A stretch of 64,000 bases of DNA from a virus. A program made the position numbers and the translations under genes. Each line of letters opens with the position of its first letter. Positions within the stretch are counted from its first letter, which is position 1. The stretch lies in IMG/VR virus record IMGVR_UViG_3300032265_003789, positions 15,734-79,733 of that record, one strand, 5' to 3'. The notes under the pieces are model-generated. The model ran no database searches, had not been told where the DNA came from, and saw nothing but the letters and a program-made list of their open reading frames with translations. Shown here piece after piece: positions 14,213-63,721 of the stretch.

Positions 14213-17089
14213 ATGACTCAAAGTTTACTTTGGCGTTTTTCCTACGGGCAAGGCAGTAGCTCTAGCGATCCATATCCTCCACTAATTGGCGGTCAAGTTA
14301 CTTTTACGACTAACAATATACTAATTAGTTCGGCAGTTGATCAGCTTGTTTTATCCGTAGTGCAAGGCTCTGCTAACTTGGGCCCGCATCCAGAGCATCG
14401 CTCAATTACCTACAACGATTTAAGCCAAGTTGTTAGTATTACCGTTCCCTACATAACCTCCGGTAATTATCAATACAACTTTAACTACAACGCTGATAAC
14501 CGGATTGAATCAATCCATTATCAAGACCCCACAATCTCTTCTGCTATTGCGCTTTGGTCTTTTACTTACAGCTCAACAGGTAGAGTTCTCTCAATTCTCA
14601 ATGAGGGTTCAAGCTACTATAGCTATACCCCTGGTACTTTTTACGATACTGACTCAAGCTACGTTCCTTCTTACCAGATACTTGCAGCCACAGGTACAGT
14701 TGAGGGGTATAGCGTAAATCTGCCTGCGACTTTCTGGGAAACGCTTGAAAATGGGCAGTCACAAATCCTAGGTAATATTCCCCAATCTGGCTTACCAAAC
14801 TTTCCCTATTGGCAGGGCAACTCTTTTGAAAACTCCAACTTAAATCGGCTTTACCCTAATACGCCTCCAGTTTATTTCGCTGGCGGTACTACAGTAGCAG
14901 GGACAGTAATCCTATTAGATAAAGGAGACGGCAAACCGCATCCTGTGGGTTTGGGTTATCAAACAGGATATCTGCCTACTGGAGAGCCAACTAAATATCT
15001 ATATTTGCTATTTGGAGATTATGCCAACAACTACTCCTACAACGGGCAAAGTTGGGATGGCGTTGTTGTAAATAGAATCAACTTTACTGACAATTTCAAT
15101 CTCACTTTACAGACCAATCAATATTTTAATCCTAGGATTTTCCCCCTGATAGAATCCACTGGCATTAATACTACTATCAGCTTTTCTAATACTATTTTGA
15201 TTAACAGCTCTGGCGCTGAACAAAGGCTGATCAAATGGCAAGATCCGCTAAGGTCTTTCAACCTCACTAGAAAGATATTAAGCTTAGCTGAACTGCTTAC
15301 AATACTGGAATTTTTCAAGACTAAATTAGGCTCTGACCTTGAATTTCTCTATCAAGATAGGAGCGATTATATAGCCAGTAATGGACAAGGCATATTGTAT
15401 CCTTTGCCCGACGGCAACAGGACTGAATTTCAATTGTGCAAGCTGTATGTCGCTGGAGATTGCGCTCATTTTAGGGCGATCTCCAGACCTGAGACGGTGG
15501 TTTCTGTGCCAGGCTACAACGTAGCTGATTGTGTGATTGATTACAATACCGGAAAGATTGTCCTGCCTAGCGCTCCTGCCGCCTCAACTAACTATTTCGC
15601 GGTGGATTTCCGCTTCTATGTTCCAGTGATTTTTGATGGGGATGAACTGGACTATACGATTGCCGGCCCAGAGGTTTATCAAATCAATAAGCTAATACTA
15701 AAAGAGATTAAGGTAATTCCTTTTATTTACCCCAGAGATAGCTTGGTAGATAGCTCAAATTCTGGGCAAAATAAAGTAGTATTTCCCAATAATTTAAACT
15801 TCATTGCTAATAATCAAATTGCCACAAATTACGATACAGAAATTGTCACTCTCAGCAGCGGTTACAATAAGCGCACTCCCAGAATCAGCCAGAGCTGGAC
15901 AAAAACCACACTAGCTCAAAGGAGCACTTTTAGCCAATTACAATTAGAAACCCTGCTAGGATTCTGGCTTGCACATAAAGGCAATGGCGCGTACTTTTAC
16001 TACAACAATTTTGGTGATTCCAATAATCAATATTTGGCTAGATTTTGGTCACAAGATTTGAATTATGTCCTGCAATCTACCAATAATATCTATCAAGTTG
16101 CTCCAGTGGAATTGCGCGTTTTCACCTTTGGAAATCCGATTAAAGATGCGCCAATTCAACAGCCAACAGATATTCTCAGCACTCCACTGTTGACCCTAGC
16201 AAGGGTCTGTAATATCACTGTTCCCTTAATCGGAACAACTGAAGTACATGGCTTTACTACTTCAGATCGTGATATCACAATTGATGGCGTGGTATACAAG
16301 GCCTCTACTGCTTTTGACCCCAGCGCTGTACAAAAGACTGTGGATATTTCGGTAGACAATCAAGAGATTAAAACCATTATTCACAGCGAGATAACAGAAG
16401 CAGAGCTTGCCTCTGGCAAGTTTGATGAGGCGACTATCACTGTGGCAGTTGTGGACTACACTAACCCACCGGTTCACTTGAGTGATTGCGTGATTGAACA
16501 AGAAGGATTTGTAGGAGAGATCACCTCCACAGATACCTATTTCAAGATGGAAAATTTAACCAAAGCTGCCAGCTTGCTTAGAAAAAACGTCTCAGTCAAA
16601 ACGCAATTCTCATGCAGATATAATTTTTGTGATGTGCCGGCAAGACCCGATAGCCATTGCACTTTGAATATTAATAATTTTCAATGGGACGCGCAAGTAA
16701 TCCAAGGGGTAAGCGGTTTTAATAACAGGCGCCAATTTTTTATTCATTGCGATACAGCAATTACTACTCACGTCCTATCCTATGGCTCAATTTACTTTTA
16801 TAGCGGGGCAAATATTGGGTTAGAATATGGTATTTTTGATAACTATTATGATGTTGGTTTTATTGGTTCACAAACTCAGAGTGGGTTGTTAATTCTAGTA
16901 GTAAATAACGCGCTATTTTATGACCCGGCTGTAGGTGATACGATAAGGCTTAGAGGCGGTTGTAATAAGCGATTTGAAACTTGTAAAAACCTATACAATA
17001 ACTATATTAATTTTGGCGGTGAACCTGCCCAAGGGCGCTTTATGCCCACCAATGATTTTTATAATTCATCTACTGCTTCAATGGGGTAA
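14213..17089 (+). CDS. Fused baseplate protein: DUF2460 (Dit)-like x2 plus DUF2163/BR0599 hub
   Basis: SGAEQR..W, FQLCKLY, FYVPVIFD; second SGYNKR repeat; GFTTSDRDITIDG and GCNKRFETC..NFGGEP. Confidence 0.8.
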   Translation: MTQSLLWRFSYGQGSSSSDPYPPLIGGQVTFTTNNILISSAVDQLVLSVVQGSANLGPHPEHRSITYNDLSQVVSITVPYITSGNYQYNFNYNADNRIESIHYQDPTISSAIALWSFTYSSTGRVLSILNEGSSYYSYTPGTFYDTDSSYVPSYQILAATGTVEGYSVNLPATFWETLENGQSQILGNIPQSGLPNFPYWQGNSFENSNLNRLYPNTPPVYFAGGTTVAGTVILLDKGDGKPHPVGLGYQTGYLPTGEPTKYLYLLFGDYANNYSYNGQSWDGVVVNRINFTDNFNLTLQTNQYFNPRIFPLIESTGINTTISFSNTILINSSGAEQRLIKWQDPLRSFNLTRKILSLAELLTILEFFKTKLGSDLEFLYQDRSDYIASNGQGILYPLPDGNRTEFQLCKLYVAGDCAHFRAISRPETVVSVPGYNVADCVIDYNTGKIVLPSAPAASTNYFAVDFRFYVPVIFDGDELDYTIAGPEVYQINKLILKEIKVIPFIYPRDSLVDSSNSGQNKVVFPNNLNFIANNQIATNYDTEIVTLSSGYNKRTPRISQSWTKTTLAQRSTFSQLQLETLLGFWLAHKGNGAYFYYNNFGDSNNQYLARFWSQDLNYVLQSTNNIYQVAPVELRVFTFGNPIKDAPIQQPTDILSTPLLTLARVCNITVPLIGTTEVHGFTTSDRDITIDGVVYKASTAFDPSAVQKTVDISVDNQEIKTIIHSEITEAELASGKFDEATITVAVVDYTNPPVHLSDCVIEQEGFVGEITSTDTYFKMENLTKAASLLRKNVSVKTQFSCRYNFCDVPARPDSHCTLNINNFQWDAQVIQGVSGFNNRRQFFIHCDTAITTHVLSYGSIYFYSGANIGLEYGIFDNYYDVGFIGSQTQSGLLILVVNNALFYDPAVGDTIRLRGGCNKRFETCKNLYNNYINFGGEPAQGRFMPTNDFYNSSTASMG

Positions 17090-20300: not shown

Positions 20301-20623
20301 TGCCCAGCTCCCACTTAGAGGATTATTTTGAGCGCAGTTGGCAAGAGCTCTATCCAGAGATTGCCCTAGAGCGCGAGGTCAAGTCAATCCCCGGCAGAAG
20401 ATTTAGACTTGATTTTGCCCACACCGCATCCAAAGTAGGGATAGAGATTGAAGGGCAAATCTGGCACAAATCGAGGCACACTAGCGGCTCTGGCTTGCTC
20501 AAATCCTACGAGAAACACAACCTCAATTTAGTTCACGGCTGGAGAGTTTTTCAATTGGCAGAGGATATGATCTGCCCAGATTGGCTCAATTTGATTGCTG
20601 ATACAATTAAAGGCGCAGATTGA
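20300..20623 (+). CDS. Vsr/DUF559-like PD-(D/E)XK endonuclease
   Basis: RRFRLDFAH..GIEIEG..RH..EKHN..GWRVF. Confidence 0.8.
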   Translation: MPSSHLEDYFERSWQELYPEIALEREVKSIPGRRFRLDFAHTASKVGIEIEGQIWHKSRHTSGSGLLKSYEKHNLNLVHGWRVFQLAEDMICPDWLNLIADTIKGAD

Positions 20624-20638
20624 AACCCTTACCTAGTA

Positions 20639-20818
20639 ATGCTTACAAATTTAGTTCCCGAAAAAGATAAACAATCCAATTCTGTGCTAAGCCATTATCA
20701 ATCAGATTTAGCAAAGGCTCTGGTTGAATTGCGACAAAAAGCAATCAAGCAAGATCTGCAGCTGTGGACAATTGAGCAGATTAACCAAGAGCTGAGCTTA
20801 CGCCGTGGCACAAAATAA
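20639..20818 (+). CDS. 59-aa protein resembling small cyanobacterial antitoxin-like proteins, not in ORF track
   Basis: LAKALVELRQKAI..WTIEQINQELSLRRG. Confidence 0.5.
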   Translation: MLTNLVPEKDKQSNSVLSHYQSDLAKALVELRQKAIKQDLQLWTIEQINQELSLRRGTK

Positions 20819-20939
20819 GCAAAAAATACTGCTTAAAAACAAAGCAGGCGAGTTAATCGAAATCGACATCCAACTGGCTAAATTGGCAATGGCTCAAGCC
20901 CTAAAAACACTGAACGAATCAACCAAAACCCTTGCCTAG
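20805..20939 (+). CDS. 44-aa hypothetical protein, not in ORF track
   Basis: GTG start, MAQNKQKILLKNKAGELIEID...; fills the gap before cas6. Confidence 0.4.
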   Translation: MAQNKQKILLKNKAGELIEIDIQLAKLAMAQALKTLNESTKTLA

Positions 20940-20941
20940 TA

Positions 20942-21640
20942 ATGCTTACAAATTTAGTTACCGAAAGAAATAAACAATCCGATTCTGTGCTAGAGCAATT
21001 TCTAGAATTAGAATTTAAAGTATCAGGCTCATCCTTGCCAGCAGACAACGGATTTTCTCTATATAGTGCAATCAAGGCAATTGCTGGCGATTTACCAGAG
21101 GATATGCTGCTTTGCTCAATTCCCGGCAAATCAGATCCTCCGGGACTAATTAAGATTAACGATGGCTCAAGGCTCAGGCTAAGGGCTAAAGGGAGCGACA
21201 CTGCCTATTACCAACAGGCTTTAGCAGGTAAAATTCTAAATATCAGAAATCACCAAATCAAATTAATTAATATCAGCTTGAAGGAGATAGAGCCAAAAAG
21301 CAAGTTGCAAGCTCGAATTGTGACTTTTAAATTGCTAGGGATCTGGGACTACGGCAATCCTCCGGTTGATAGATTTTGGCACATCTGCAATAAGGCGCTA
21401 GCGACAATTGGCGTTACCGCAAGATTGGATTTTACTAGGGTTAGTTCGCTCAAGATTCACGATAGGTCCGTCTTGGAATTTGGCGTGATTGCCTCTCGAT
21501 TATCCGAGCAAGACTCAATAACCTTGCAGCAAAAGGGTTTAGGGGGAAGAAAACACTTTGGATCGGGATGGTTTTTTAAATTTTCTCAAATTAGGTATAA
21601 ATACCTATTGACCCCCAACGAAAAATCGCATAAGCTATAG
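20942..21640 (+). CDS. cas6: CRISPR-associated endoribonuclease Cas6 (Cmx6/I-MYXAN-like)
   Basis: LEFKVSGSSLPADNGFSLYSAI, LRLR, LQARIVTFK and the C-terminal G-loop LQQKGLGGRKHFGSGWF. Confidence 0.85.
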   Translation: MLTNLVTERNKQSDSVLEQFLELEFKVSGSSLPADNGFSLYSAIKAIAGDLPEDMLLCSIPGKSDPPGLIKINDGSRLRLRAKGSDTAYYQQALAGKILNIRNHQIKLINISLKEIEPKSKLQARIVTFKLLGIWDYGNPPVDRFWHICNKALATIGVTARLDFTRVSSLKIHDRSVLEFGVIASRLSEQDSITLQQKGLGGRKHFGSGWFFKFSQIRYKYLLTPNEKSHKL

Positions 21641-21670
21641 AAAGTTAAGAAATTAATCAATTAGGAGATA
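21588..21670 (+). promoter_or_regulatory. Early promoter with operator, embedded in the cas6 3' end
   Basis: AAATTAGGTATAAATACCTA-TTGACC-N17-TAAGCT ... TTAGGAGATA. Confidence 0.7.
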
Positions 21671-21674
21671 CAAA

Positions 21675-22082
21675 ATGACACTTGCTACTACTTGCCTCAA
21701 CGATCCCATCGAGACCAAATCTTTTGAAGGAGTTCAATTGAGAGGATCCTCTCAATTGCATCGCTTAGCCCAAGAAATTTGCAGCTTGTTTCAAGAAGAG
21801 GAAATGCAGGAAGAAGGATTAGATCCTTCGCACAAATCTCTGTACTATATCAAATCCGTTCCTCATGGAGAATCAACTACAATCATGTTTTGCGACGTTC
21901 GCACGAAAGCTGGTGTCACAGTGCGGTTAAAGGATCTGGCTACAGAAACAATACAGCACTTTGCATTTAGCGGAGGCAAAATATGCCTAGAAGTTGACAC
22001 ATTGCAAGCTCATGGTTTTGGAATTGTTGAAGCTAGTCTTGTCGGTCGGGAAAAAATGTCGCTTGCTGCTCTGACTTGCTAA
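21675..22082 (+). CDS. Hypothetical early protein (135 aa)
   Basis: Strong RBS, own promoter and terminator. Confidence 0.7.
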   Translation: MTLATTCLNDPIETKSFEGVQLRGSSQLHRLAQEICSLFQEEEMQEEGLDPSHKSLYYIKSVPHGESTTIMFCDVRTKAGVTVRLKDLATETIQHFAFSGGKICLEVDTLQAHGFGIVEASLVGREKMSLAALTC

Positions 22083-22087
22083 AAATA

Positions 22088-22119
22088 TTAGGGGCTTGCA
22101 ATAGCCCCAACAAAAAAAA
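22088..22119. terminator. Terminator between convergent genes
   Basis: GGGGCT-tgcaat-AGCCCC followed by an A run (U tract on the minus strand). Confidence 0.6.
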
Positions 22120-22120
22120 G

Positions 22121-22771
22121 TTAGTCCATCTCTGCTTGCTTATTACAAGCGACGTGTGAAATCAATTCAAAAACTCTAGTCCCTCTAATTGGTGCTAGGA
22201 CTTGTTCTGCTTTCCAGAATTCAGGATTGCTGTGAAGCTTGAGCAGATTTTGTGATTTGTAGTTTCCGCTGAGTATTTCTGTCTTCGTAAGCTCCAAGCC
22301 CATTAATAATTCAAATTGCTCTAGATTTTCTGTAAATTTAGCTCGATCAATTTCCAGTAAATCCAATTCGAAAAGCACAGGGAATCTATCTTTTTCTTGA
22401 GCTTCTTGAGCTAGAAATAGGATATGCTTTTGCCCACTTTCAGCTATAGCAATTGTAAAAGGTGGCTCAGGTGGATTTATAAGCCACTGCCTGATTAGCG
22501 ATCTATTGGGCAAAGTATGCACGCGATCACCTTCAAAAATTGGATAGGATTGCTGGTTGGAAAGCAGCCAGCTAAATGTGCGAGAAAATAAAAGCCCTTC
22601 CTTTTTTGTATTGGGATTGTAATACTTGACGCGCATGGGAATCACCCAAGCGCACCTATCGCACCAAAGCTTAGATTCTGGTACTTTGGCTCTAGAGTGA
22701 GCTGTAAAGGTATCTTTTAAACTTAGTGATTTAGTGGCTCCTTGAGCTCCACACAAATAACAGAAATTCAT
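22121..22771 (-). CDS. csf1: Type IV CRISPR large subunit Csf1 (Cas8-like)
   Basis: CYLCG...FTAH...WCDRC Zn finger and LINPPEPPF..ESGQKH motif; adjacent to csf2/csf3; probable start MNFCYLCG. Confidence 0.75.
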   Translation of the reverse strand: MNFCYLCGAQGATKSLSLKDTFTAHSRAKVPESKLWCDRCAWVIPMRVKYYNPNTKKEGLLFSRTFSWLLSNQQSYPIFEGDRVHTLPNRSLIRQWLINPPEPPFTIAIAESGQKHILFLAQEAQEKDRFPVLFELDLLEIDRAKFTENLEQFELLMGLELTKTEILSGNYKSQNLLKLHSNPEFWKAEQVLAPIRGTRVFELISHVACNKQAEMD

Positions 22772-22822
22772 ATTTTTAGTAATTGGTATATTGATATAAA
22801 TCAATCAAACCATACTAGTAAT

Positions 22823-23338
22823 ATGCTTGGATTTGCTACAGACGATAGGATTACTTCACTAGCTGCTGCTTTAAGCTATTGGGTTTTTAGGTGCCGAGAT
22901 ACCAGTTCAGCAGCAAACGGGCTAAAAACCTGGGAGTACATGCAGTCTTCTATACAAAACGCTGCCACACCTTCAAGAAGCCTTAGTGACTATTTAGTGA
23001 ATCTTTCGCTCAAGCTTTCAGTCCCTACGCTCAAGCCCAATATCTGGCGCCAGATAGTTCAACCTAATCAGGTTGTCCTAAGAGCTGCTATTTCAGAAGA
23101 TGGCAGCTTGGGTGATTTGCAACAATTCAACAAAGATCAAGCTTTAGCCTATCAAGATTGGGAGCAATTGATTCACCAATGGCGCATTGAGTACGGAATT
23201 ACTGAAAGGCACGTTCTGAGGGTTTGCTTAAATAGACCTCAACTAGTAACTCTATACGTGAGGCTCAAGCACGAAGAAGAAAAGCTTAATTGGCAAAACA
23301 ATACACAAGAAAATAAAGGAGACACTATCGATGTTTAG
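22823..23338 (+). CDS. Putative type IV-B small subunit (Cas11-like)
   Basis: Alpha-helical protein (KTWEYMQSSIQNAA..SLSDYL..L..KL) directly upstream of csf2, the Cas11 position. Confidence 0.55.
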   Translation: MLGFATDDRITSLAAALSYWVFRCRDTSSAANGLKTWEYMQSSIQNAATPSRSLSDYLVNLSLKLSVPTLKPNIWRQIVQPNQVVLRAAISEDGSLGDLQQFNKDQALAYQDWEQLIHQWRIEYGITERHVLRVCLNRPQLVTLYVRLKHEEEKLNWQNNTQENKGDTIDV

Positions 23339-24488
23339 TACTTACAATCCAGACAAACGCCATCGCATTACTTTTCACCTTGTATTAGAAACTCTAGCTC
23401 CTTTGAGCCATATTGGGGAGACCGTGGGCAATCAAGCCAATTTGCGGACAGTAACCCTGACTGATATTGAAGGTGAACCTACTCCTATATTCTGCCTATC
23501 CGGGAATTCATTGAGAAATAGAATATTGCGCAGAGTAGGGATTGACGATATGCTCTCTCGCCTAAAAATCACAGTAAATCCACTTTTGCATCATGCACTT
23601 TTTTGTGGGGGCGCTCTTGATGGAGGCACTTCTAATAATCTTGAATTAGATAAAAAAATTAGGCAATTCTTACCACCAATTTCTTTATTGGGCACAGCTA
23701 AACCTAAAGGGGTTTTTGGTGCTACTGATGCCCAAATGATTGGCGGTAGGCTCAATGTGGGTGATGCCGCGCTGGTCTGCTACGAAAGCGCATTAGCAAT
23801 TTTTAATACTTTTAAGCCGGCTTTACCAGTTGAAGTAATTGAAGCTTTAACTCAAATTGAAAACGCCAAAAGGACTTTAGAAGCAGAACGAGTGCAGGCT
23901 TTTTTATCTGGCAAAGAATCTACTAATACAGGTTTAGATTACAAGGAAACCTTGAAGTATTGGCTGCCTTTTTTAGAGCAAAAGCTCAGACCCTACCCAC
24001 ACTGGCTTACCTATATACAAAAAACCAGACGCGATTCTCACCATGATCCCAATTTGGTAAAGCACCTTTTACCAGCAGCCGGCAAAGTTCAACAAACGCT
24101 TTTTGATTCTGGAGAAACTAAAAAGGAAAAACCCAAGAGTAATCAGATGATCATGGGTTCATGGTTAATACAACAAGGCGCAACCTTGTATTCTCGGTGG
24201 GACGGATATATCACAGATGTCGAGGAAGGTTTTATTGCTCGGGCTATATTGGCTTGGGCAGATTCTCCTTACGTCGGTGGGCAAGCTAATACAGGCTGTG
24301 GTAAGGTTGCAGCTAAAATCTATTATTCCAGTGAGGGGGAAATAGGGGACTGGATGCTGGTACAAGAAGGCAAACATACCTTGACTGAGCGCTCAGCCAA
24401 ACAACAGGCAAGATACGATCAATACCTTCACGAATACGAACAATATTTAGAACAAAATTCAAACGAAATTGCAGGTATACTAGGATGA
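23331..24488 (+). CDS. csf2: Type IV CRISPR backbone Csf2 (Cas7 RAMP)
   Basis: LETLAPLSHIG, LSGNSLRNRILRR, LFCGGAL, PPISLLG, MIGGRLNVG and the C-terminal VGGQANTGCG G-loop. Confidence 0.85.
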   Translation: MFSTYNPDKRHRITFHLVLETLAPLSHIGETVGNQANLRTVTLTDIEGEPTPIFCLSGNSLRNRILRRVGIDDMLSRLKITVNPLLHHALFCGGALDGGTSNNLELDKKIRQFLPPISLLGTAKPKGVFGATDAQMIGGRLNVGDAALVCYESALAIFNTFKPALPVEVIEALTQIENAKRTLEAERVQAFLSGKESTNTGLDYKETLKYWLPFLEQKLRPYPHWLTYIQKTRRDSHHDPNLVKHLLPAAGKVQQTLFDSGETKKEKPKSNQMIMGSWLIQQGATLYSRWDGYITDVEEGFIARAILAWADSPYVGGQANTGCGKVAAKIYYSSEGEIGDWMLVQEGKHTLTERSAKQQARYDQYLHEYEQYLEQNSNEIAGILG

Positions 24489-25165
24489 CTCCTTTACAAA
24501 TTACAGCGCACCTTTCACGACCTTTAGCCACTACTGATAGCCTTTCTCCAGCGATTGAAGGATTGATTGAATATAAGCTCAGAGAAGAACTAGGGCTACT
24601 AGATCCCAATCCACAAAAGCTTGAAGAAATAACACAGATAGATTTACCCCTACTAAAAAACAAATTGGGATTTTATCACTGTAGCTCTCCACACTATCTT
24701 TACAGCAAAGAAGAGCAAGTCAATTTTCGTAAGCGCTGGGATTATCAGGATAGGCACTTAGACTGGGGCAAAAAGAAAGCCAAGGTTGATACAAGTCAAG
24801 GGCAGTTCAAGTCTTACGATATGCCACTTTTTTTGCGTACGATTAGTAGAATTGACTGGTTCGTGGTAGGAGAGCAAGAGACAATTTTAAGATTACTCAA
24901 AAACGTAACTCACCTAGGCAAAAAACGCAGTCAAGGATATGGGTTGGTTACTAGCTGGACTGCTCAAGAAATTCCAGGGGATTGGTCAATAATTGGCCCA
25001 GACAACAGGCTTAGACGACCGGTTCCAGTAGAGCTATTTACTCCTAAGTTGCCTGAGCACAAACAACTAGCAGCCTGGAAATTACCAAGCTGGCACCACG
25101 AATCTACTAGCCTTTGCTGGGTACCAAGCGTGAATATTAAGCAGGAGAATTGTCTTGCCTCTTAG
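24485..25165 (+). CDS. csf3: Type IV CRISPR Csf3 (Cas5 RAMP)
   Basis: MTPLQITAHL, GQFKSYDMPL, WFVVG..LL..VTHLGKKRSQGYGLV..W, LRRPVP. Confidence 0.85.
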   Translation: MTPLQITAHLSRPLATTDSLSPAIEGLIEYKLREELGLLDPNPQKLEEITQIDLPLLKNKLGFYHCSSPHYLYSKEEQVNFRKRWDYQDRHLDWGKKKAKVDTSQGQFKSYDMPLFLRTISRIDWFVVGEQETILRLLKNVTHLGKKRSQGYGLVTSWTAQEIPGDWSIIGPDNRLRRPVPVELFTPKLPEHKQLAAWKLPSWHHESTSLCWVPSVNIKQENCLAS

Positions 25166-25892
25166 CAAAGGCTCTGGCTTACAAATTCCTTGGCTCAAGC
25201 CCAAAATCAACAAGGCTCTAGATTTAATTAAGCAGTGGCTAGAGCTTTGTGATCATCAGGTTTATTGCGCGGTTTCGGGCGGTAAGGACAGCTTGGTTTT
25301 AAGCCATTTAGTGCAACAAGTATATCCAGATTGCCCAAACCTTTGGATTAATCAAGGCCCTTTGGCTGAATGGGATGATTGTATTGAATTGTTGTCAACT
25401 TTCAATAATTTGATTGAATTGTGTCCGAGAAGGTCTTTATTAAAGTTGTATTGTGATTACGGGCTTAATTTTGATGGCACAATGCACACAAAATTAGACA
25501 AAATCATAAATCAAATTTTAATTTATGATCCACTTGATGAGTACATTGAGCAACATCAAATAAAAGGTTCTGCCGTAGGGATTAGATCTCAAGAATCAAA
25601 AGCAAGACTTTTAAATCTTGCCAGAAGAGGACTATTGTATCAAATGAAAGACAAATCTTGGAAGTGCTGCGCAATCGGAAAATGGACAACTCAAGATATT
25701 TGGAACTATATTGATCACCATAAATTGATCTATCCTGCAATTTATGATTTAGACAGGTATACAGTTAGAAACGGGCCGCCTAACGGAACTACCGGCGCCA
25801 ATAGGGGGCGAATAACTTTTCTTAAACGACACTACCCTGAGCTCTATCATCAATTTATTCAAGCTTTTCCCGAAGTAAAAGACCACTGCTAA
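25155..25892 (+). CDS. cysH: CysH/PAPS-reductase-family (PP-loop) protein, type IV-B accessory
   Basis: VSGGKDS PP-loop, GIRSQESKAR, W..QDIWNYI; coupled to csf3. Confidence 0.8.
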   Translation: MPLSKGSGLQIPWLKPKINKALDLIKQWLELCDHQVYCAVSGGKDSLVLSHLVQQVYPDCPNLWINQGPLAEWDDCIELLSTFNNLIELCPRRSLLKLYCDYGLNFDGTMHTKLDKIINQILIYDPLDEYIEQHQIKGSAVGIRSQESKARLLNLARRGLLYQMKDKSWKCCAIGKWTTQDIWNYIDHHKLIYPAIYDLDRYTVRNGPPNGTTGANRGRITFLKRHYPELYHQFIQAFPEVKDHC

Positions 25893-25903
25893 AATATTTT
25901 CCC

Positions 25904-25982
25904 AAATTAAGTATAAATACTTATTGACCCCTAATAGGAAATGGATTAAGCTATAAAAGTTAAGAAATTAATTAGGAGATAC
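25904..25982 (+). promoter_or_regulatory. Early promoter with operator
   Basis: AAATTAAGTATAAATACTTA-TTGACC-N17-TAAGCT ... TTAGGAGATA. Confidence 0.7.
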
Positions 25983-25985
25983 GAG

Positions 25986-26213
25986 ATGTCAATGGAATTA
26001 TTTTTACGTGACGGCAAGTTGTATTACAGAACCGCTAAAGGGGACGTATTTGTCCTCAACGGACTACGTAGCGAGATCATCAGAAACCCTTTCAATTATT
26101 TGGTTCACAGCGCAGTCTGTGACGCCACGGATACTTTCAACCTTATTGCCTCAAAAGAGGTAATCGCTGATCTAGTAGAATCTCTAGAAGCAGCCAGTGA
26201 AGTCGGATTTTAG
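25986..26213 (+). CDS. Hypothetical early protein (75 aa)
   Basis: AGGAG RBS after the promoter. Confidence 0.65.
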   Translation: MSMELFLRDGKLYYRTAKGDVFVLNGLRSEIIRNPFNYLVHSAVCDATDTFNLIASKEVIADLVESLEAASEVGF

Positions 26214-32746: not shown

Positions 32747-33862
32747 ATGGAATTTATAACCACTAAAGCACTACTGTATCAGGCATTGAGCAAAGCTGCT
32801 GCCTTTGTTCCAGCCAATGCCAATCACCCAATTCTCAAAACAGTCCTAGTTGAAGCGAAGGACAAACAAGTCAGCTTTACAGGGTTTGACCTGCAATCGG
32901 GATGCGTGGCACAATCTCAAGCCACTGTGGTTAAACCGGGCTCTGTAGCGATAAATAAGCAAATATTGAGCGATTTGATTAGCAGGCTATCTGGGGATAT
33001 CAAATTCCATGTGGATGAGAATTTTCTAACGACAATCACAGCTTCTACCGGCAGCTATCAAATTGCTTCCGGCAATTACAAAGATTATATAAGCCTGCCT
33101 GTTATCACGCCAGAAATCAAATTTGATATAGATCCCAAGTTGCTCAAGCAATTTATAAAATTTACTGGTTCTTTCTATACTAATGAGTCAAGTAAGCAGA
33201 TTCTCACTGGTGTTGATTTTAAATATTTACCTGAGCAGCAAAGCCTTGTAGCAGCCGCTACTGATAGTCACAAGTTGGCGGTGCAAGCAAGCAGTTGTGA
33301 TTCTGGGGAAAAAGCTTTTGAGGTAGTGATACCAGGAGCTAGCTTGCAAAAAATCAACCGATTACTAGAAGGTTCGGTGGTTTCTCTGGAGATAGATTCG
33401 GCATGGCTGCGCCTAACCCTATCTTCTGGAGATATTGTGATTACTAGAAAACTTGAGGGAACATATCCTAAATATGAGTCCCTAGTGCCTAAAAAATTTG
33501 AATTAGAATTTACAATCAATCGCAAGGAGCTATTGAGCTCACTAGAGCGCGTGGCATTATTTTCTAATAAAGATATAGTTCAATTTAGTATTAGCCACAA
33601 GGAATTAGAGCTCAGCGCAAAAAATGAAGTTAACTCCAGTCAAGAATTGATGTCAATTGAACCAGCTAGGGGTAATGGGCTTACTTCTTTGATTATTGCC
33701 TTCAATATTAAATATTTGATTGAGGCTATCCAATCTGTCAGCTCTGATTCAATACGGATTAAGTTGAATCAGCCTACCAATCCAGTGATTATCACTCCAG
33801 AGCAAGAGGAAGAAAATACCAATTCCTTAATCCTAATCATGCCAGTACAAATTGTAAAATAA
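32747..33862 (+). CDS. dnaN: DNA polymerase III beta sliding clamp
   Basis: HPILKTVL, GFDL, ILTGV, AATDSHKLA, EGTYPKYE, FNIKYL, LIMPVQ. Confidence 0.92.
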   Translation: MEFITTKALLYQALSKAAAFVPANANHPILKTVLVEAKDKQVSFTGFDLQSGCVAQSQATVVKPGSVAINKQILSDLISRLSGDIKFHVDENFLTTITASTGSYQIASGNYKDYISLPVITPEIKFDIDPKLLKQFIKFTGSFYTNESSKQILTGVDFKYLPEQQSLVAAATDSHKLAVQASSCDSGEKAFEVVIPGASLQKINRLLEGSVVSLEIDSAWLRLTLSSGDIVITRKLEGTYPKYESLVPKKFELEFTINRKELLSSLERVALFSNKDIVQFSISHKELELSAKNEVNSSQELMSIEPARGNGLTSLIIAFNIKYLIEAIQSVSSDSIRIKLNQPTNPVIITPEQEEENTNSLILIMPVQIVK

Positions 33863-36130: not shown

Positions 36131-36360
36131 CTCCTTATCGGGCTAATATATATATTATCGGATATATCCCTTAAGAGATCAATAGGTATTTATACCTAAT
36201 TTTGGGTATTTTTTTATAAACTTTCTTATATATTTCTAGATATTTTGAGATTTTACTTATATGTGTCGGTAATCGTATTGATAAACGTACGGATACCCGA
36301 AAAATATATAAGATATTTTGTTGATTTTGCCAGAAATTATCAGGAATTTGTATATATACT
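36131..36360 (-). repeat. Inverted copy of the 2560-2790 element including promoter/operator
   Basis: Minus strand AAATTAGGTATAAATACCTA-TTGATC-N17-GATAAT-ATATATATTAGCCCGATAAGGAG. Confidence 0.85.
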
Positions 36361-36570
36361 GTACGGGTATTTGTACGGGTTATCGTACCGGTAATCGTAC
36401 CGACAAGGGAATATATAAGATATTCTGTCGATAGCAGCCGGATTTATCAGGTTTCCGTATGGATATTGTATTGATAATCGTATCGAGTGTCGTACCGGGT
36501 ATCGTATTGAAATAGGATATATAAGATATTCTGTCGCCAGCAGCCGAATTCATCAGGTTTTTGTATATTT
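36300..36570. repeat. Three ~50-bp motifs at 107-108-bp period with ATCGTAC/ATCGTAT-rich linkers
   Basis: ATATATAAGATATT(C/T)TGT(C/T)G...ATCAGG...GTAT near 36304, 36411 and 36518. Confidence 0.75.
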
Positions 36571-48312: not shown

Positions 48313-48624
48313 TCTTCACAACGTCTTCACAGTCTTCACGCGTCTTCACATCGTTCTGTGAAGAGCTGCAATCCATGTAGGGTAAGCTTTTTAGGACTTT
48401 TTAAAGTCATCTTCACGCTCTTCACAGAAAAATAAAAATACTCTTACACGTAGGTGGCTTTATATATTTTTCTGACTTCCTTTTTTATTCTTATATATAT
48501 ATATTTTCTTGTGAAGATAGTGAAGAGTAAAGTAAAAGAGAATTAAAAGCCTTGCCTAGAGCGAGTTTTCCATCTTCACAAATCGATGTGAAGACGCGTG
48601 AAGACTGTGAAGATGCTGTGAAGA
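48313..48624. repeat. Putative replication origin: symmetric TCTTCAC iteron array
   Basis: 14 TCTTCAC/GTGAAGA copies; 52-bp arms 48313-48364 and 48573-48624 are near-perfect inverted repeats around an AT-rich core; near the primase-helicase gene. Confidence 0.75.
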
Positions 48625-48690
48625 CCAATTGGATAGACACAAAAAAAACCGAGGTAGTGCCCCGGGATTAATATTGTGATTGGAGTATAA

Positions 48691-52400: not shown

Positions 52401-52798
52401 TTATTGATGAGCTCGAGGCTATCCGATCTAGCGGTCGTTATGGTGAATCACTAACTAAGTACAAAGACAATAAAGCTGAGTTTAACCTAGCGTGGCATCA
52501 CAGCGCTAAAGAAGTGCAAGATCGAATACTAGCACTAGACCTAGGGGAGATATCCGCAATTAAAGAATTTAGACCGATTATCCCAAGACCCCCCTGGCTT
52601 GATTGGGAGTCGGGGCAATTGGTGATTTATCGCGGTCGTACCTACTGGTTAGTTGGAGTTGCCGGTGCTGATTGCGAAATTCCCAGTCTCAGGGGGAAAA
52701 ACGCAGTCGAGATCTTGCCAGTAAATGGCAAAGCTATTAGTCAATTTGTAGAAATATTGGAGGTGCGGTCATGGTTACCAAACAGCGCAGCAGCTTAA
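49421..52798 (+). CDS. Bifunctional primase-polymerase / PriCT / helicase replication protein
   Basis: IAIDLDG, SVIAGKHPHTGRYRW (prim-pol); GGRNNGL..CSPPLPQRE (PriCT-1); GDSGGGKST Walker A, IIVTSNH. Confidence 0.85.
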   Translation: MFLEGSQLELLNLGSRFIPIQGNKTPCEGGWQNSGYTLERFIELYQSNGFKTYRKVEAIGVVLGTGLIAIDLDGESAFAKACEISGLNEPLPHTVSFSSGKPHRRQLLYKYPEEIKISSKQISCAPEELLEFRLKGMQSVIAGKHPHTGRYRWVEGCSPSEASIADCPQWIIDFLLSFNSAPTVPVSKPSLASQVYAAGAIPLSKLISKKHQEIINSGVGQGGRNNGLAALARDLIGAENRAQSQGVDYTESARKLFDIASSRCSPPLPQRELETIWRSAEKGDPNSCLDSEAWDNVLSAWTRKQMAPAHKVATVQVATVSGEIREETFPIEPHGFVVVDGRIGRIEDKLEPKYTLESDGSRTPEFDAKGKIKKILVQKFKPYTNFTFDVVDILDDEYSQNPGLLVEIQEVENPKKARVLIRDTSMHRLADLTRAFSSGYGSTLMNNLKLDQLSELIAAKKEDYIKNGGKRHILSACRGQQPRSSNGKEGYWVFEDIQFTPEGEVCSSEKSGVIFNKTYGEGDEIPNPKILPPNPDILGKVLRAMRRALREQNVYPALFLVASQVMGLHYQKIHRARGHVPMTNAIGDSGGGKSTASKVARALLGLHKTGSAGDCSDSALFENLKYLGGLSYTIEDPKKDPAFDETTKKIYDGEARVKRGNYQKPLSSIIVTSNHAIGRDGAAIMTRFNRIPFFRDAEIGKDQSDFDDLTMDLLDQASGAFQLLLKFGYDNTQVEIIRQRIDKFLPQAHRRISPNLSILTFYALKLAPYAGLSEEQIMNYVSTVLCRVANDQDSGKSSLQDFVEKLRDLESRSLIGPWNYREIQKQNGQRIAAIKLQSVWPIFERIYQVQYDVQQIKADNEQNNGRNDGWQLLATSQREFQAWEVNNLNPDSNQKLYQSKNTRCIEIRLDKFDISPEPFEQDEPTENLEIPFSTRYEQIINAEPKMPKPVEPIDSLPEIVNPDPAITLPEIPKPEPSNAQAIEHEIDDDLVGEIIDELEAIRSSGRYGESLTKYKDNKAEFNLAWHHSAKEVQDRILALDLGEISAIKEFRPIIPRPPWLDWESGQLVIYRGRTYWLVGVAGADCEIPSLRGKNAVEILPVNGKAISQFVEILEVRSWLPNSAAA

Positions 52799-53745
52799 AA
52801 ACACATTTATTACTAGAGCCAACCATAGCTCAAATGGTGGCTTATCTTGAGAAAACTTACGGGCATGAAGCGCCAGGCATTGGAGAGAGATATCTGCAAG
52901 TGATGTCTACCCCTCCAGCAAAACTTAGCAATCTTGGTTTGCCTACTTTTACCCCTGGCGAACCATGCCCAGATTGCCAAAGTACCCACACACGTAAGCA
53001 TACTGAGACAACCGCGGGAAACTCTAGTCTGTACTGTCATGATTGCAAAAAATATATTACTTCTAAAGCAGATGAACCAAAGTTTGTAATTCAACCTAAA
53101 AAATGCAAACAAACCTCAAAATCAAGGGCACCTAAAACCTCATGGGCTCAACAAGAATGTCCACATTGTTGGAGCTCTGCTGTTATTTTGCACTCTAGCG
53201 ATTATATCTATTGCAAGGATTGCGCCAAATATAGTCGAAGAGATCCAAGCTCAATTAAACCTAAAATACAATGCCCAAAATGCTCCAGCCACAATACCCG
53301 ATTACACGGACAAGCTCAAATGTACTGCAAAGATTGCACTAGGCATAGTCAAAGGAACCCCAGCCGGATTAAACCTAAAATACAATGTCCAAAATGCACT
53401 AGTCACAATACCAGACTTATAAATAAAGATCAAATCCATTGCAAGGATTGCAATAAGTATAGCCACAAGGATCCCAGCAAAATTAAATCTTCAACTGCCC
53501 TACAATGCTCAAAATGTTTTAGCCACAATACCAAATCACACGGCAAAGATTACATGTACTGCAAAAATTGCAATATGTATAGCCACAAGGATCCCAGCAA
53601 ACTCAAATTTAATATTAAAGCGCAATGTCCAAAATGCTCAGGATTCGAAACTGCATCTCGCGGCAAATTAAACATTTTTTGCTTTAATTGCGAGCAATAT
53701 GTGCGAAGAAATTACACAAAAAAATTACCATTGAAACTAGATTAA
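52771..53745 (+). CDS. Protein with six C4 zinc ribbons, five in tandem
   Basis: CxxC-(S.NT)-x~10-CxxC units of 38-40 aa; ~114-bp DNA repeat. Confidence 0.75.
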   Translation: MVTKQRSSLKTHLLLEPTIAQMVAYLEKTYGHEAPGIGERYLQVMSTPPAKLSNLGLPTFTPGEPCPDCQSTHTRKHTETTAGNSSLYCHDCKKYITSKADEPKFVIQPKKCKQTSKSRAPKTSWAQQECPHCWSSAVILHSSDYIYCKDCAKYSRRDPSSIKPKIQCPKCSSHNTRLHGQAQMYCKDCTRHSQRNPSRIKPKIQCPKCTSHNTRLINKDQIHCKDCNKYSHKDPSKIKSSTALQCSKCFSHNTKSHGKDYMYCKNCNMYSHKDPSKLKFNIKAQCPKCSGFETASRGKLNIFCFNCEQYVRRNYTKKLPLKLD

Positions 53746-63634: not shown

Positions 63635-63637
63635 CTG

Positions 63638-63721
63638 GCAAATGTTCGGAGCTAATTGGGTAAATGTTCGGAGCTAATTGAGCAAATGTTCGGAGCTAAT
63701 TGGGCGAATATTTGAAGCTAA
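63638..63721 (+). repeat. 22-bp tandem repeat, ~3.8 copies
   Basis: AAATGTTCGGAGCTAATTG at 63640, 63662 and 63684, degenerate at 63706. Confidence 0.85.

Follow-up and report, generated by a model that had tools for sequence, protein, structure and literature searches.

Type IV-B CRISPR systems are described as devoid of Cas6 and arrays and as located mainly on actinobacterial plasmids (PMC7038947, PMC8175902, PMC12669027). Their RNA partner and function have been unknown since the subtype was defined, and the only solved complex was assembled on random RNA. Pinilla-Redondo et al. listed 12 rare IV-B loci with a Cas6 (PMC7038947); a Cas6 beside IV-B is rare, not unprecedented. Roles as a sponge or a hijacker are already published hypotheses for IV-B (PMC7038947, PMC7937560, PMC8175902). 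Elsewhere in type IV, array-less IV-C complexes recruit CRISPR RNA (crRNA) from co-resident systems (PMC13676074), and IV-A3 acquires spacers in trans (10.1101/2023.06.23.546257). Here we analyse a IV-B-like module of a tailed cyanophage, encoded at positions 20942-25892 of a 64,000-nucleotide (nt) stretch of DNA. This stretch, referred to as the window, comprises bases 15734-79733 of the 79,733-bp IMG/VR virus record IMGVR_UViG_3300032265_003789, which is rated 96% complete.

The module combines the IV-B gene set with a host-type Cas6 and has no array in cis. It belongs to a conserved family in which Cas6 proteins of host type have been captured repeatedly. Its RNA substrate, the loading and the outcome are what we infer from these data. 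The reading we favour, at somewhat less than an even chance, is that of a working phage-borne type IV-B effector module with a recruited host-type Cas6, which would load host I-MYXAN crRNAs in trans into a nuclease-less Csf complex. The original prediction, made from the sequence alone, had suggested that the locus may act as an anti-CRISPR sponge or hijacker of host crRNAs or, alternatively, direct CysH-dependent chemistry with a non-array guide RNA. Its structural part, an array-less IV-B-like phage module with a Cmx6-type Cas6, is borne out by profiles, folds, repeat searches and the linkage of cas6; the proposed role is carried forward below in conditional form.

The module resembles the IV-B system on the plasmid of Mycobacterium sp. 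JS623 (7JHY, PMC7937560) in its five-gene set, the Cas11 fold and a CasCysH PP-loop protein without the catalytic Cys, as well as in the lack of a helicase, nuclease, adaptation genes and array. In contrast to JS623, it resides in a lytic-type tailed cyanophage rather than on an actinobacterial plasmid, csf1 is inverted and a Cas6 is added. The window sequences are very divergent from those of JS623, with the Csf2 profile slightly nearer to the IV-C Cas7 11fs. IV-C and IV-A3 are similar as type IV effectors that need the guides of others, and in some IV-C loci a Cas6 is present without being a stable subunit of the complex. Unlike the phage module, IV-C is chromosomal and carries a Cas10-HD nuclease, while IV-A has DinG and its own array; the donor system here, in contrast to IV-C and IV-A3, would be that of a host under phage attack. 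The atypical IV-B system of Fuxivirus, a Bathyarchaeia virus (PMC10848311), is likewise virus-encoded, contains a CysH-like protein and was proposed to act in counter-defence. Fuxivirus lacks Cas6 and carries a mini-array of two repeats; in the present phage a Cas6 is encoded and repeats are absent.

Gene content of the module

Six genes constitute the locus:

20942-21640, + strand: cas6 of the Cmx6/I-MYXAN (I-B) type; the core ends at ~21577 and the last 20 codons are read-through
22121-22771, - strand: csf1, type IV large subunit (TIGR03114 2.7e-11; PADLOC Csf1_0_IV 6.2e-28, full length)
~22823 to 23338, + strand: cas11, type IV small subunit, 171 residues (PADLOC Cas11_2_IV 1e-13, full length)
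23331-24488, + strand: csf2, the Cas7 backbone (PADLOC Csf2_0_IV 2.3e-38, full length)
24485-25165, + strand: csf3, Cas5 (PADLOC Csf3_0_IV 2.8e-45, full length)
25155-25892, + strand: CasCysH-like PP-loop ATP pyrophosphatase (PF01507 53.7 bits, above the cut-off; motif SGGKDS)

All six had been predicted within 20942-25892, and profile or fold searches confirmed the identity of every one. The predicted layout needs two corrections: csf1 runs opposite to the other genes, and an extra orphan open reading frame (ORF) lies between cas6 and csf1. In hidden Markov model (HMM) and structure searches the proteins match Cas6 and Csf profiles and type IV folds; against the TIGR csf models the Csf proteins score far below the cut-offs. 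The AlphaFold2 model of Csf1 (predicted local distance difference test score, pLDDT, 89) finds its best match in 7xfz chain A, from the Csf complex of type IV-A (Z 10.5, root-mean-square deviation (rmsd) 3.6, 179 residues). Csf1 contains an invariant CxxC...CxxC zinc ribbon; a C-terminal QLSLF tail found in some relatives is absent in the window copy. The csf1 and cas11 genes are divergent, with 51 nt between them. The start of cas11 was placed at ~22823, and the resulting 171 residues agree with the length of the homologues (~171). The Cas11 model (pLDDT 79) matches 7jhy_h of the type IV-B complex in VIA-align (Z 9.1, rmsd 2.7, 114 residues; next match Z 4.5), and Foldseek returned no match for it. 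Searches of the PDB gave nothing for Csf2 and Cas11 with single sequences, nor for Cas11 and Csf1 with profiles. The Csf2 profile detects type IV Cas7 chains of IV-C (11fs, 1.7e-7), IV-B from JS623 (7jhy_e, 5e-5) and IV-A (1.7e-4).

The profile of the CysH-like protein matches PAPS reductases in the PDB. Residues S41, G43, K44, D45 and S46 are invariant among 21 homologues, and there is no conserved C-terminal Cys; an SGGxDS PP-motif and the lack of the catalytic cysteine are the features that define CasCysH (PMC8175902). The alignment of these 21 loci separates two subfamilies, SGGKDS with an insert of ~25 residues and SWGKDS without it. The subfamilies are swapped between otherwise close modules: the Csf proteins of the window and of the relative L012 are 97-99% identical, their CysH-like proteins only 51-54%.

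As predicted, DinG and adaptation genes are missing, with no DinG/RecD helicase, Cas10-HD or adaptation gene found among the ORFs of 20.6-26.3 kb. The locus thus has the Csf1, Cas11, Csf2/Csf3 and CysH-like proteins of type IV-B, together with its lack of a helicase, Cas10-HD, adaptation genes and array; it departs from the type in having a Cas6. We regard the module as an atypical IV-B variant because Cas6 is present and conserved with it.

Cas6 scores 106.2 bits against TIGR02807 (cas6_cmx6), above the cut-off of 98.85, and also matches PF09559 (1e-39), the PADLOC Cas6 profile (3.7e-42) and the solved type I-B Cas6 8fcj (5.5e-11). The phage protein and the host homologues invariantly share H104, H205 and a G-rich loop (G199-G209, GLGGRKHFGSG). 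With regard to a putative endoribonuclease activity on a cognate repeat hairpin, the two conserved His residues are retained, but the His of the host ADHGY motif is Asn in the window protein, and repeat queries of the phage found no cognate repeat. The score, the loop and the two His residues are shared with the cyanobacterial I-MYXAN Cas6/Cmx6 proteins and with 8fcj, which belongs to a Cascade of a type I-B CRISPR-associated transposon. In contrast to the I-MYXAN genes, the phage cas6 does not stand beside cas3, cas8, cas7, cas5 and an array, and the protein has a borrowed 17-residue N-terminus, a long branch and an Asn in the ADHGY motif. The borrowed part stems from a duplicated translation-start region (20926-20992, + strand; a 93% direct repeat), which consists of the ribosome-binding site (RBS) and the first 17 codons of cas6. 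It duplicates positions 20623-20689, the start of an upstream ORF of 59 residues, and cas6 is probably expressed from this copy. Host Cas6 proteins start at the position equal to window residue 18. At its other end, a T-run that is 1 nt short relative to L011/L012 carries cas6 20 codons past the stop of its relatives.

Relatives, Cas6 capture and selection

Csf2 has more than 262 homologues, mostly on contigs of 40-125 kb, with many invariant residues. IMG/VR contains 54 loci of the family, while only two short contigs of cyanobacterial metagenome-assembled genomes carry Csf2 homologues among 185,579 species genomes. Searches of GenBank phages with blastn and tblastn gave no relative of the locus or of Csf2, and no report of a cyanophage type IV-B was found in the literature searched. 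We place the module in a large cyanophage branch of type IV-B that is unpublished, rich in viruses and marked by recurrent capture of Cas6.

We used HMMs for a census of 58 loci, window included. It found csf2 in all 58, cas11 in 56, csf3 in 55, the cysH-like gene in 52, csf1 in 40 and cas6 in 22, and the usual gene order is cas11-csf2-csf3-cysH-csf1. Whether cas6 accompanies the locus in related phages had been proposed as a check: it is present in all five nearest relatives and in the 22 loci, the window among them, sometimes inside the operon. The positions of cas6 in the nearest relatives are:

L002 and L003: Csf2 99% identical to the window; order as in the window, with cas6
L004: Csf2 71% identical; csf2-cas6-csf3
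L005: Csf2 70% identical; cas6 after cysH
L006: Csf2 65% identical; cas6 after cysH

The gene lies between csf2 and csf3 also in L013, as in L004, and between csf3 and cysH in the more distant L038-L043. The clamp-binding-like QLSLF tail of Csf1 is encoded by 15 of 41 csf1 genes, never in Cas6-positive loci.

Homologues of the phage Cas6 are present in 78 of 301 sampled cyanobacterial genomes, at 38-45% identity. The complete I-MYXAN locus headed by one near homologue (cas6-cas3-cas8a1-cas7-cas5-cas4/1-cas2-array) has a hairpin repeat of 36 nt. As predicted, the Cas6 is of a kind that cyanobacterial class 1 systems use: genes of the same type stand next to I-MYXAN arrays in cyanobacteria. A maximum-likelihood tree computed from 20 phage and 25 host Cas6 sequences shows the phage sequences as polyphyletic among the chromosomal cyanobacterial ones. 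The phage label needs 5 changes, at least 4 of them forced by well-supported branches, and the lineage of the window falls, on a long branch, inside a single host clade. In the Csf2 tree, the clade of the window (window/L011, L013, L005, L014) is wholly Cas6-positive, with Cas6 proteins from three lineages at different positions. The lineage pattern fits a putative replacement of Cas6 to match host repeat families.

Ratios of nonsynonymous to synonymous substitution (dN/dS) between the window and L012 are 0.11 for cas6, 0.10 for csf1, 0.03 for csf2 and 0.04 for csf3. The value for cas11 is 0.41, from only 5 nucleotide differences. These ratios indicate that the module genes are under purifying selection.

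Some relatives show further rearrangements. An accessory gene of 196-230 residues with an HDxHH motif and a weak Coq4 match (L015:12919-13509, L045:12515-13207, L056:14223-14915) is inserted after cysH in some of them and absent from the window; it is homologous between Cas6-positive and Cas6-negative loci (BLASTP 3e-21). L015 contains a GIY-YIG ORF between csf2 and csf3, and its ORF 14298-14972 was considered as a divergent csf1 and rejected. At L006:12980-14450 (identical in L014), a C-terminal TnpB fragment and a duplicated csf1 5' end beside csf1 form the trace of an insertion element. A 38-nt repeat pair near csf1 in L006/L014 adjoins the TnpB fragment and is not read as a CRISPR array.

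Guide source and genomic surroundings

The predicted absence of an array and of cas1 from the window extends to the full 79.7-kb record, which is truncated on the 5' side. Over all 79,733 bp, scans with k-mer chains, a two-copy search with up to 3 mismatches in 24, Tandem Repeats Finder, Rfam and direct repeat queries found neither an array or mini-array nor a solitary repeat. Rfam at gathering thresholds gave nothing in the window, and neither Cas1 nor TnpB/Cas12 domains were found in the whole record. When host I-MYXAN repeats and the array repeats of relatives were compared with the phage, the best match had 6 mismatches in 22 and lay within a gene. In 336 kb of flanks from Cas6-positive relatives there is neither an array nor a solitary repeat resembling that of I-MYXAN (3' half of 22 nt, up to 5 mismatches).

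Arrays of 11-28 repeats are found 3-7 kb from csf1 in the distant relatives L045, L046, L050 and L055. In L045 (16339-19324), L050 (14188-19136) and L055 (17722-21105), all without Cas6, a TnpB/Cas12-like gene of 622-627 residues stands directly upstream of the array; its product may be the published Cas12p family (10.1101/2025.01.20.633832). The repeat of the L046 array is that of L050. In L050 two arrays whose 37-nt repeats differ lie side by side, and a second TnpB-like gene follows. A seven-repeat array is located 850 nt downstream of csf1 in L056 (16612-17087), with no Cas12-like gene in the fetched flank. In the Cas6-positive L039 (5790-6040), and equally in L040, ~7 tandem units of ~37 nt form CCCCAC-NNNN-GTGGGG hairpins with short variable linkers; they are non-coding and 3 kb upstream of cas11.

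Several further features of the window lie within or next to the module:

21580-21680, + strand: promoter/operator cassette with palindrome TAGGTATAAATACCTA and TTGAC, followed by an AGGAG RBS; drives the orphan ORF; direct repeat with 25896-25991
21675-22082, + strand: orphan ORF of 135 residues, without a family match in Pfam, TIGR and PADLOC profile searches
22091-22108, - strand: GC-rich hairpin with a T-run, a likely csf1 terminator by sequence
25896-25991, + strand: second copy of the promoter/operator and RBS cassette

The two cassettes bound a 4.3-kb segment from the orphan ORF through csf1, cas11, csf2 and csf3 to cysH. The cassette occurs in 5 copies in the window, with 0 expected. 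The Atlas model of the orphan ORF (pLDDT 0.46) gives no lead. The ORF is absent from all related loci, with other ORFs in its place in L012, and judging from sequence comparison it is a variable passenger gene outside the conserved module.

Three-copy periodic repeats of 106/107 nt, each with a conserved unit of ~50 nt and a CGTAC-rich variable part, are present at window 36304-36566 and ~2492-2606, and a further set in reverse orientation lies outside the window at genome 6177-6430. Every set adjoins a copy of the operator/promoter cassette TAGGTATAAATACCTATTGA. We rejected these sets as odd CRISPR arrays, as they are AT-rich, contain CGTAC boxes and stand beside promoter/operator cassettes; they look regulatory or origin-like.

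The 5' end of the record falls inside an ORF of 1777 residues, and the record is therefore incomplete. Tailed-phage genes elsewhere in it include a large terminase, DnaN, a prim-pol, ribonucleotide reductase and thymidylate synthase, and the terminase is nearest to those of Nodularia and Cylindrospermopsis siphophages (34-42% identity). The original prediction had placed the locus between tail-tip and tail-tube genes. The tail tip stands, as directly upstream there is an RcGTA-like block of DUF2460, a gp84-type hub, NlpC/P60 and an Rcc01698-type host-specificity protein; the tail tube finds no support, the downstream genes having given no tail-tube match in PHROGs or Pfam. The phage clamp, a DNA polymerase III beta subunit (DnaN) with all three domains, is encoded at window 32747-33862. 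It is of note because the Csf1 of Cas6-negative relatives ends in the clamp-binding-like QLSLF. At 48313-48350 there are four 10-nt iterons resembling TCTTCACACG, and four copies of the reverse complement follow 240 nt away at 48587-48625. Both sets fall in the gap upstream of prim-pol and are possible marks of a replication origin. An ORF at 52771-53745 consists of four tandem zinc-ribbon modules of 114-120 nt, and a 22-nt tandem repeat of 3.9 copies (63637-63721) is close to the record end.

Possible roles of the module

In the favoured reading, the phage Cas6 would recognise the repeat hairpin of the host I-MYXAN/I-B-type precursor crRNA during infection and cut or hold it. Csf3 at the 5' handle, Csf2 and Cas11 as the backbone, and Csf1 of the phage would then assemble on host crRNAs. 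The complex has no nuclease or helicase, and host guides would therefore end in particles unable to recruit Cas3. Host interference could be blunted by guide sequestration or by protospacer occupation; alternatively, the phage might turn the spacer memory of the host on rival elements. CasCysH might supply ATP-dependent adenylylation chemistry at the bound target, leading to redirected silencing or modification. The data fit a module that needs a Cas6 and exchanges it time and again for versions of host CRISPR systems, as expected if the substrate is host precursor crRNA. The borrowing of crRNAs has a precedent in type IV-C (PMC13676074). A bolder version, which we put forward only tentatively, is that cyanophage IV-B acts in trans as a thief of guides: repeated capture and swapping of Cas6 would load Csf with crRNAs of the current host's repeat family and so disarm or redirect immunity.

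Several observations weigh against crRNA loading. The JS623 complex, from the one IV-B system tested, showed no enrichment of crRNAs from a co-expressed I-E Cas6 (PMC7937560), and IV-B loci are negatively correlated with other CRISPR systems (PMC7038947). A hunt for host spacers, in which 20 kb of the window was compared with 401 cyanobacterial genomes, yielded chance or coding matches only. In 36 of the 58 loci cas6 is absent; the module can therefore work without one. The branch of the window Cas6 is long (2.13), and Asn occupies the His position of the host ADHGY motif, as it does in the solved I-B Cas6 8fcj. Finally, an array could still lie in the missing 5' part of the record.

The divergence of Cas6 is also consistent with a different substrate. 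Cas6 and Csf might act jointly on a non-CRISPR hairpin RNA, from a phage or host transcript, and regulate expression or replication rather than immunity. The JS623 complex does assemble on heterogeneous non-CRISPR RNA (PMC7937560), and the clamp-binding-like Csf1 tail of Cas6-negative relatives points to a replication-linked role for the family, in a phage that encodes its own DnaN. We nevertheless consider this account unlikely: neither the locus nor the genome yielded a conserved hairpin or an element resembling a repeat, and a fixed phage RNA substrate is hard to square with repeated replacement by different host-type Cas6 lineages. Cas6 could also act on its own in counter-defence, binding or destroying host precursor crRNA or poisoning Cascade assembly, and merely share a hot spot for accessory genes with Csf. 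Its own borrowed start region, the promoter cassette, orphan gene and terminator that stand between it and the csf genes in the window, and the mosaic nature of the region, with cysH only 51% identical between relatives otherwise 97-99% identical, agree with such independence. In relatives, however, cas6 is found within the operon, in the csf2/csf3 or csf3/cysH gap. Close copies (92% identity) were seen only in two csf-bearing relatives, in a scan sensitive to close relatives only, and we find a stand-alone Cas6 distinctly unlikely.

There is only a slim chance that this is an ordinary CRISPR system with an array in an unsequenced part of the genome or one provided by another phage-borne system. 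The record does begin within an ORF and has a completeness rating of 96%, and arrays are present near csf1 in L045, L046, L050, L055 and L056. Yet those of L045, L050 and L055 adjoin a TnpB/Cas12-like gene in loci without Cas6, the phage record contains no Cas12, TnpB or Cas1, and no array is found in the fetched flanks of any Cas6-positive locus. Hardly any credence attaches to a decaying remnant without function. The inverted csf1, the read-through tail of cas6 and the inserted orphan ORF might be taken as signs of decay, but the ORFs are all intact, four of the five genes measured have dN/dS values of 0.03-0.11 (cas11 0.41, from its 5 differences), and many residues are invariant across a family of 262+ members.

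Loading of host crRNAs by the captured Cas6 remains the reading we prefer. Because its family has a known substrate class, the I-MYXAN/I-B repeat hairpins, Cas6 provides a built-in pointer to the RNA of type IV-B in this module, which is carried by the attacker and not by the defender. The relatives offer natural comparisons, with three Cas6 lineages, loci in which Cas6 is absent, the clamp-binding tail of Csf1 and a neighbouring Cas12 array. With host crRNAs as its cargo, the module would be a multi-protein counter-defence, or a hijack of immunity, of a new kind. Should the theft of guides prove true, it would reveal the natural RNA partner and the biological role of type IV-B.

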